Below are positions 24,019-33,886 of a stretch of DNA of 64,000 nucleotides, piece by piece. The DNA comes from Felis catus (taxonomy: Eukaryota). Location of the stretch: the NCBI RefSeq assembly GCF_018350175.1, contig NC_058368.1, positions 34,102,001-34,166,000 on the forward strand. Reading direction: 5' to 3'. The notes beneath the pieces were generated by a model that saw only the letters and a list, made by a program, of their open reading frames with translations, ran no database searches and had not been told where the DNA came from. Each line of letters begins with the position of its first letter. The stretch's first letter is position 1. The translations under genes were made by a program, and so were the position numbers.

Positions 24019-24069
24019 AGTGGCTATTTTTTCCCCTTGATTTTTTTTTTTTATTTTTTATTTTTTTTT

Positions 24070-24232
24070 AGGGGAAAGCGCGAACGCAGTCCCCCACTAC
24101 CACAAATTATGCAGTCGAGTTTCCCACATTTGGGGAAATCGCAGGGGTCAGCACATCCGGAGTGCAATGGATAAGCCTCGCCCTGGGAAAACCACCTTCG
24201 TGATCATGGTATCTCCCCTGCCAGGTAAGTAT
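24070..24232 (-). pseudogene. RNU1: U1 snRNA processed retrocopy (full-length minus the last G), with poly(A) at 24041-24069 and TSD
   Basis: Minus strand reads ATACTTACCTGGCAGGGGAGATACCATGATCACGAAGG...ATAATTTGTGG (Sm site)...GCGCTTTCCCCT, matching recalled mammalian U1 over 163 nt. TSD TCCCCTTGATTTTT at 24032-24045 and 24233-24246. Flanks are old L1, with no recognisable snRNA promoter or 3' box. Confidence 0.97.
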
Positions 24233-24449
24233 TCCCCTTGATTTTTGATAACATATTCCTGATATTTGTAATTTTTATTGAATCCTTTGTGAAGTTTGTA
24301 TTTTATTGTTGTTTTCTTTCCAAACTTTGATATTGATTCATTAAATAAGGTATTATAATTCAATACTTTATGATTTATTTTTAACCATGATAAAAATCTA
24401 CTCTATTATGTTCATATTTGAAACTGCATCATTTGAACATTCGCCATCA

Positions 24450-32048: not shown

Positions 32049-33886
32049 CTCATTAAGATTTGTTTTAATAGGTATTAAAAGGCTGTGACAAATTTTTCAT
32101 CAAGTTTTTTTTTCCATTAAAAAGTACTGGTTTTAAAAACCAATAACCTAAAAATGACACACACACAAAACACATGGTCCACAAAACATTCTTCTTTCCT
32201 TCTGAAGGTTTTATGATGCATTGCTAACACTATCCAGTCTTTTACTATTAAACTTAAGTGGCCAATTGACACAAACTGTTCTGAGACTATTCTTCCACCG
32301 CTAATTAAGACTGGGGTGGCAGGGGGCACCTGGGTGGCTCAGTCAAGCATCCAACTCTTAATTTCAGCTCAGGTCATGACCCCATGGATTCGTGAGATTG
32401 AGCCCGCATCAGGGTCTGTGCTGACAGCAAGGAACATGCTTGGGATTCTCTCTCTCCCTCTCTCTCTCTCTCTGCCCCTCCCCTGCACATTTATGCTCTA
32501 AATAAATAAATAAATAAACTTAAAAAATAAAGACTGGGGTGGCTGGTACTGGGGATGATATTCATTTAGCCTTCTGAGCTTTCTGGGAGGACTTGGTGTC
32601 CCTACCAGCTCCAGCTACCTTCTCGTCTACTGCTTTGACGACACCCACACCAGTCGTCTGTCTCATGTCACGAACAGCAAAATGGCCTGGGGGAGGATAG
32701 TCACAGAAGCTCTCAACACACATAGGCTTGCCGTGAACCACATTAACGATGGCAGCATCACCAGATTTCAAGAACTTGGGGCCATCTTCCAGTGTTTTCC
32801 CAGAACGACGATCAGTCTTCTTCCACTCAGTGAACCTGCAGGCAATGTGAGCTGTGTGACCGTCCAGCACAGGTGCATATCCAGCACTGATTTGGCCTGG
32901 ATGGTTCAGGATAATCCCCTGAGTCGTGAAGCCAGCTGCTTCCACTGATGGGTCATTTTTGCTGTCACCAGCCACATCACCCTGGCCAACATCTTTGACA
33001 GATACACTAGTCTACACCCGGCCCTCAGGGACAGTACCAATACCACCAATTTTGTAGACATCCTGGAGGCTTGCATCCTCAGACACGAGGGCTTGTCAGA
33101 TGGATGAGTTGGTGGCAGAATGCAATCCAGAGCTTCAAGCAGTGTGGTTCCATTGGCATTGCAGTCTTCACAGTTAACTTTCCATCCCTTGAACCAAGGT
33201 GTGTTTGCACTTGGCTCCAGCATGTTGTCACCATTGCAACCAGAGAATGGCACAAATGCTACTGTGTCAGGATTGTAGCCGATTTTCTTGTTGTAGGTGC
33301 TACTTCCTTAACAATTTCCTCATATCTCTTCTGGCTGTAGGGTGGCTCAGTGGAATCCGTTTTGTTAACACCAACAATAAGTTGTTTTACACCCAGGGTG
33401 TAAGCCAGAAGGGCATGCTCACGGGTCTGCCCTTTCTTGGAGAACCTGCTTCAAATTCACCAACACCAGCAGGAACAATCAGGACGGCACAGTCTGCCTG
33501 ACATATACTATAATCCTCCTTTTGATAAAGTTATTGTGTCCTGAGACAACAGTGATAGTCACAGGATGCTTGCTGGTCTTGAACTTCTACAGAGAGCTAT
33601 CAATGGTGACACCATGTTCATAATCAGCTTTTGGTTTATCCAAGACCCAGGCATACTTGAGGAGCCCTTTCCCATCTCAGTGGCCTCCTTCTCAAACTTT
33701 TCCATTGTTCTTTTGTCTATCCCACCATAATTTATAGATGCGATGACTAGTAGTTGTAGACTTTCCCAAATCTATGTGTCCAATGATGACAATGTTGATA
33801 CGATTTTTTTCCTTTACCATTTTTTTTAGGATTAGTGGCGCTTTTCATGACACCTGTGTTCTAGTGGGAAACCCACTGAAAAAAAG
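32049..33886 (-). pseudogene. EEF1A1: EEF1A1 processed pseudogene (full-length mRNA copy, disabled)
   Basis: 5' TOP start CTTTTTTTT at 33886; fused non-coding exon1/exon2 junction ACACAG|GTGTC; ATG 33820 ([24 protein letters not shown]); ...[13 protein letters not shown] at 32562-32564; EEF1A1-like 3'UTR and decayed A-tail; no introns; frameshifts and a premature TAG at 33012-33014. Confidence 0.97.
32322..32529 (+). mobile_element. CAN-SINE inserted in the EEF1A1 pseudogene 3'UTR
   Basis: TSD AAGACTGGGGTGGC at 32307-32320 and 32530-32543; (TAAA)n tail. Confidence 0.95.

Follow-up and report, generated by a model that had tools for sequence, protein, structure and literature searches.

A very young U1 retrocopy in the cat genome, with a complete but most likely unused exon on its opposite strand

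The sequence analysed here, called the window below, is a stretch of 64,000 nucleotides located at C1:34102001-34166000 of the cat genome, which was searched in the form of 71 contigs totalling 2.43 Gb. A scan of the whole 64-kb window against Rfam gives a single match, and no other family: the U1 snRNA (RF00003) is found on the minus strand at 24069-24232, aligned to model positions 1-166 with a score of 175.2 bits (E 1.2e-45). On the contig, this U1 copy occupies C1:34126069-34126232. The window has a GC content of 35%, with no CpG island and no 2-kb bin in which the observed to expected CpG ratio exceeds 0.51. Among its 146 open reading frames of at least 68 amino acids, one has a Pfam match, to a pseudogene of elongation factor 1-alpha, and the scan found no other coding exon. 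This processed pseudogene lies on the minus strand at 32565-33340: the reading frame 32565-33011 matches the C-terminal domains of eEF1A (E 3e-28), and neighbouring reading frames extend the match in other frames.

The first-pass annotation of this DNA had proposed, as a check, to look for a host gene of the U1 copy and to determine its strand. The nearest gene that we mapped is PCDH17, on the plus strand. A protocadherin N-terminal domain match at C1:33969300 belongs to an 870-codon reading frame that is 100% identical to PCDH17 of Panthera; residues 1-867 of the Panthera protein map to exon 1 at C1:33969081-33971681 (+), and residues 971-1197 to the last coding exon at C1:34061698-34062378 (+), both with 100% identity. 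The mapping used a stricter first look, which gave no exons for residues 868-970, and small downstream exons might therefore have been missed too. The U1 copy follows the PCDH17 stop codon at a distance of 63.7 kb, thus outside the gene, and the site falls in no detected gene. On a larger scale, C1:29789402-34062378 carries, in this order, a protocadherin exon on the minus strand (29.79 Mb), an olfactomedin-domain exon on the plus strand (30.01 Mb) and PCDH17, also on the plus strand (33.97-34.06 Mb), and the window comes next; the following protocadherin-type match is at 42.63 Mb, which places the window on the border of a long region poor in genes.

The features of the U1 copy are collected in Table 1. 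The copy had been described as an antisense U1 retrocopy with a poly(A) tail and a target-site duplication, and this description holds on all counts: the Rfam match, the identity to gene copies, the A tail and the exact duplication agree with it. The border between tail and duplication is ambiguous because there are runs of A on both sides, and the length of the duplication is 14 bp, or 15 bp if one includes the T that coincides with U1 nt 1. The T tract of the plus strand had been interpreted as the reversed tail, which is correct for the 24 nucleotides of the tail, but 5 of the 29 bases of the tract belong to the duplication.

Table 1. Features of the U1 copy, on both strands, in window coordinates
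Feature	Position	Strand	Description
U1 snRNA retrocopy	24070..24232	-	mature RNA from nt 1 to nt 163, without the terminal G164; Rfam match and identity to gene copies L004-L007
A-rich tail, 24 nt with 22 A	24046..24069	-	reads A9 T A6 T A7 on the minus strand
Target-site duplication, tail-side copy (TCCCCTTGATTTTT on +)	24032..24045	.	exact 14-bp direct repeat, script search
Target-site duplication, copy at the U1 5' end (TCCCCTTGATTTTT)	24233..24246	.	same exact 14-bp repeat
Candidate branch point TTGAT, A at 24040	24036..24040	+	32 nt upstream of the exon start; motif match
Second candidate branch point TTTAT	A at 24053	+	motif match
G-free T tract, T12 A T6 A T9	24041..24069	+	putative polypyrimidine tract; by analogy also a likely hnRNP C site
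TAG acceptor	24069-24071	+	read from the sequence
Latent exon, 153 nt, antisense U1 nt 9-161	24072..24224	+	sequence and frame translation
Donor CAG/GTAAGTAT	GTAAGTAT at 24225-24232, GT at 24225-24226	+	read from the sequence

At the inferred nick, the plus strand reads TTTTT/GA, a context which we take to fit the preference of the LINE-1 endonuclease. No L1 segment separates U1 from its tail: this is a simple tailed copy and not a U/L1 chimera. We infer that it is a processed retrocopy of the LINE-1 type. A U1 RNA without its last base, carrying an A tail, would have been reverse-transcribed from a nick opened after TTTTT on the plus strand, and the reaction would have left the 24-nt A tail and the duplication of 14-15 bp. 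Such events belong to a known class. The mobilisation of snRNAs by LINE-1, U1 included, is described in passages of PMC11838501 and of Doucet et al. 2015 (PMC4476161), and the former, a review, cites papers of the Weiner laboratory from 1981-83 on processed pseudogenes of U1 and other snRNAs. The window copy shares with the mobilised U1 and snRNA pseudogenes its full length, the absence of gene flanks, the A-rich tail, the duplication and the T-rich nick site. It differs from them in nothing essential, and is distinct just in its youth.

Evidence for this youth comes from the comparison of U1 loci across the genome. There are 42 such loci above the Rfam cut-off, and the flanks of all 42 were compared. 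Thirteen are gene-like: six form an array at C15:83.869-83.904 Mb, six are on C17, and one is on C37. The other 29, which include the window copy, are dispersed; an exact direct repeat of at least 12 bp, starting at most 3 nt from the U1 5' end, accompanies 15 of the 29, and most have A-rich sequence on their 3' side. When aligned with the gene copies L004-L007 of the array, the window copy shows no difference over nt 1-163 (0/163), while the remaining 28 dispersed copies have from 2 to 24 differing positions. All of its CpGs are intact (8/8). At mammalian substitution rates, the absence of changes suggests that the copy is at most a few million years old. The flank of the dispersed copy L033 shares 12 nt with that of the window copy, but this match was dropped, as blastn returned just U1 and common repeats.

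In some of the dispersed retrocopies (L017, L018, L019 and L023), U1 nt 164 is separated from the A tail by 1-5 additional bases. These bases resemble the 3' flanks of genes: GCAAG in L019 can be compared to GCAAA in L010, and ATT in L023 to ATTTT in L008 and L009. Judging from these flanks, such retrocopies seem to have been made from U1 precursors that were extended at the 3' end and adenylated; the window copy instead lacks the last base.

A perfectly preserved U1 sequence invites the question of whether the window copy could be a working U1 gene, or a variant one, transcribed from the minus strand: its Rfam score stands beside scores of 175.1-175.5 bits for the gene copies. U1 genes, however, depend on an upstream promoter element, situated about 50-60 nt ahead of their start. 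The upstream motif AAGTGACCGTGTGT is found at six of the seven gene-like loci that were aligned, and in a variant form at the seventh, on C37; in the alignment with these seven loci, the block was not found at the window copy. Outside of U1, all similarity with the gene loci is gone: the 3' end of the window copy runs into the A tail at the point where the gene loci carry their own flank, and the target-site duplication marks an insertion. That the locus is a U1 gene is, in our opinion, hardly worth entertaining. A LINE-1-made retrocopy would be dead as an snRNA gene, because the upstream promoter element that it requires was not copied.

Read on the plus strand, the insertion contains the signals of an exon. 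The first-pass annotation had listed a branch point, a T tract, a TAG acceptor, 153 nucleotides, and a donor at the junction CAG/GTAAGTAT, and direct reading finds them exactly as described. This layout is not a chance pattern, since it is what the reverse complement of U1 and an A tail yields: U1 nt 162-163, once complemented, supply the AG of the acceptor, and U1 nt 1-11 likewise supply the donor. The duplex of the donor with U1, of 11 bp and with a free energy of -14.0 kcal/mol, confirms the earlier claim that the donor is exactly complementary to the U1 5' end. When 24074-24223 is translated, a 50-residue peptide with no stop is obtained, and each of the other two frames has one stop; both observations agree with the earlier description, the peptide letter for letter in phase 1. 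The exon has a GC content of 55.6%, against 31-33% in its flanks. The U tract, the AG, the 153 nucleotides with their open frame and the donor pairing perfectly with 11 nt of U1 thus form a full latent exon by construction. The same layout is seen in other dispersed copies: when the 29 were examined, the exact 11-nt donor was found in 18 and the GT was kept in 23, and 16 have at least 80% of pyrimidines across the 25 nt upstream of the acceptor.

The existence of an exon does not tell whether it is used. Assuming that some RNA crosses the site on the plus strand, be it an unannotated lncRNA, a read-through transcript of PCDH17 or an extended isoform of that gene, the 153 nucleotides could be spliced in, or the donor or the acceptor could be used alone. 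Everything needed is there, from the acceptor and its U tract to the perfect donor, and the exon is on the strand of PCDH17 and downstream of it, which means that read-through would go the right way. As to folding, the minimum free energy of 24031-24247 is -51.8 kcal/mol, no more stable than that of shuffled sequences (z 0.11); the donor is unpaired in the centroid structure, and a hairpin begins at the G of the acceptor. We had considered RNA structure as a possible block to splicing, but, that hairpin aside, a z of 0.11 is no argument either way. What speaks against the use of the exon is the distance from the PCDH17 stop codon, the CpG-poor DNA in which it lies with no other exon-like content, and the composition of the U tract itself.

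Repression of antisense Alu exonisation by hnRNP C was reportedly described in 2013 by Zarnack. In the parts of Attig 2016 (eLife, PMC5115870) that deal with these elements, hnRNP C is said to bind antisense Alu elements at their U tracts and to block U2AF65; about 9-10 uridines permit its cooperative binding, and long tracts silence strong cryptic sites. The U tract that precedes the latent exon has two runs of at least 9, of lengths 12 and 9, and repression of the exon would therefore be expected in most cells, by analogy with Alu elements. The earlier statement that the insertion should be spliced in if any plus-strand transcript crosses it is consequently too strong, runs of at least 9 U being of the type bound by hnRNP C in that account (PMC5115870).

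Taken together, the locus holds a very young U1 retrocopy, probably made by LINE-1, whose plus-strand latent exon is most likely unused and which is itself most likely inert. The proposed reason for disuse is twofold. In AT-rich, CpG-poor DNA so far beyond PCDH17, with no detected gene around, transcription across the copy is probably lacking; and even on a transcript that did cross it, hnRNP C would be attracted to the long U runs.

A plus-strand RNA could also put the donor to work without splicing, since bound U1 suppresses polyadenylation: a U1 snRNP held there by the 11-bp duplex could suppress nearby cleavage and polyadenylation, or retain the RNA in the nucleus. However, the site is a lone one in a gene-poor region with no evident target, and such a role would be indistinguishable from neutrality here. 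We give this possibility very little credit.

Traces of the window in sequencing runs carry no information on transcription. Among the 24 sequencing runs listed by the search, 14 DNA-type runs, all of one organism, share 0.94-0.97 of the sampled words, and the runs labelled as RNA share 0.48, 0.45, 0.27, 0.13 and 0.08 of them, with 0.26 for a run guessed to be RNA; for these RNA values, DNA carry-over in gut metatranscriptomes is an equally possible source.

Another approach is to look at proteins: if antisense U1 is used as an exon, the peptide of its open frame should be found inside longer annotated proteins. The search for this peptide covered 202 candidates and gave 144 matches; the 120 matches listed were classified. 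In 86 of these 120 the match runs straight through the donor (…SPLP GKY…), and 14 align only partly. We rejected the 86 as evidence, because read-through is what reading frames on unspliced DNA, or antisense to true genes, are expected to produce, and many of them are indeed antisense to true genes. In the other 20 of the 120 listed, the sequence changes exactly after the last predicted residue, that is, at the predicted donor. Twelve of these spliced-looking matches come from a single annotation, that of Plecturocebus, whose method is unknown, and they were given little weight. The eight others include entries from Saimiri, Myotis and Molossus.

In Saimiri boliviensis, an ABCA17-like model (RefSeq XP_074237865.1, and its isoform X1) contains the peptide as a cassette, with the junctions …TFFQR/G-ES…LP-A/HAGTAV…; in the cat genome, such junctions coincide with real exon borders, the peptide falling between two ABCA17-like exons separated by 8 kb. 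The KIF2C models of Myotis brandtii and M. yumanensis (RefSeq XP_014384723.1 and XP_070260995.1) begin with a U1-derived segment, which continues at the predicted donor into GLIHSANV…, and the KIF2C exon of the cat starts at the residue directly after the peptide. All four Myotis isoforms that were seen (4/4) have this U1-derived N-terminal segment; Pfam places a KIF2A-like N-terminal domain at residues 52-89 of the model, the first 16 positions of the profile being absent. The MEIKIN model of Molossus molossus (GenBank KAF6481057.1) has the peptide with the predicted junctions, and other isoforms go from the same upstream junction to different exons. Pfam detects no family in the Saimiri, Molossus and rabbit models, whose identities are taken from their source names and from exon matches in the cat genome. 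In all these cases the junctions are those of gene-model annotations, and a perfect pair of sites around an open frame is precisely what gene predictors like.

A second search, with the frame-0 peptide, gave 62 matches among 78 candidates, all listed. One of them is a Puma concolor SNX6 model (XP_025775083.1), whose last exon starts exactly at the predicted acceptor. The exons of this model map beside the U1 array of C15, and the exon is therefore antisense to a real U1 gene rather than derived from a retrocopy.

Two further matches deserve a mention. The MetaClust protein P0122, of 559 aa, consists of at least seven tandem antisense-U1 peptides, in each of which the predicted donor leads into a linker of 16 residues; its sequence resembles what splicing across a tandem array of U1 genes would give. 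The human 'hypothetical protein FLJ40852' (EAW83976.1, P0294), of 139 aa, starts with the frame-0 peptide, shifts to the open frame, and passes through the donor; its FLJ40852 name hints that it may come from an antisense U1 pseudogene inside a human cDNA clone.

For the cat locus, these searches cut both ways. Gene models of other mammals have junctions identical to those predicted here, and the SNX6 model of the puma ends with an exon that uses the same acceptor, antisense to a true U1 gene. On the other hand, among the 182 proteins listed with antisense-U1 peptides (120 of the 144, and all 62), none is named PCDH17, and none is from a felid with the exception of the SNX6 model, which belongs to a different locus. 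Together with the position of the copy and with its U runs of hnRNP C type, this leaves the actual use of the exon in the cat as an improbable reading, though a less remote one than that of an unspliced U1 binding site. The earlier idea that U1 retrocopies act as portable exons fares better elsewhere than at home: the layout recurs, and gene models of other species have the exact junctions in their annotation, but nothing of the kind extends to the cat locus.

The U1 retrocopy itself is textbook material, its class having been recognised in the early 1980s; the useful part is the corollary on exons. In a search of open-access and bioRxiv literature, no paper was found that links U1 pseudogenes with exonisation. 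Since the U1 5' end has the ideal donor as its complement, every tailed U1 retrocopy is a finished antisense exon, with no need of mutations. The closest analogue is the antisense Alu exon as treated in sections of Attig 2016 (PMC5115870): there too, the reversed poly(A) gives a U tract before an AG, the cryptic sites are inside the element, and the U runs are long. The same pages state that the mutations creating Alu splice sites usually arise well after integration. In contrast, the U1 copy has both sites complete at insertion, with a donor that is the exact complement of U1. The two families also differ in size, with tens of U1 copies per genome against a million for Alu, and at the cat locus the U1 exon is latent.

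Retrocopies of other cellular RNAs can also behave as splicing elements. The part of PMC9325892 on GLB1 reports that a processed pseudogene of NPM1 in intron 5 of this gene creates a cryptic exon. The likeness with the U1 copy is that of a retrocopy of a cellular RNA as a splicing element, which in the NPM1 case, as told there, alters splicing from an intron; that copy is inside a gene and causes disease, whereas the U1 copy is outside any detected gene.

It is tempting to conjecture that tailed, full-length U1 retrocopies form a recurrent class of exons, complete at birth and so far undescribed, that genes of bats and of New World monkeys have already adopted some of them, and that the cat copy is a pre-exon awaiting a transcript; we hold this conjecture as a tentative one, and would rather bet against it. 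If U1 copies are exons complete at birth, then an orientation bias inside genes and silencing dependent on hnRNP C should be expected. The peptide search makes the corollary countable, through the Saimiri ABCA17-like, Myotis KIF2C and Molossus MEIKIN models. If transcripts confirm these models, U1 copies would constitute a small and clean natural test set for the silencing of perfect, unwanted exons, one that could probe repression by U tracts and hnRNP C, as well as orientation selection, without the slow maturation of Alu sites. Practically speaking, the U1 locus of the window is most probably inert.

The survey of U1 loci also shows some organisation among the gene-like copies. On C15, six U1 genes adjoin the 3' part of SNX6, which is on the minus strand (C15:83869446-83904366, with L001, L002 and L004-L007; C15:83886174-83926550, with L051-L054); these genes alternate in orientation, and their flanks are pairwise identical. 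The gene-like locus of C37 (L010, C37:28222133-28222296) is a U1 copy that shows 3 differences, and its upstream motif, AATTGACCATGACTGT, has diverged. Weaker U1-like matches are found near it, at C37:28214278 and C37:28204767, and these loci may be a small cluster of variant U1 sequences.
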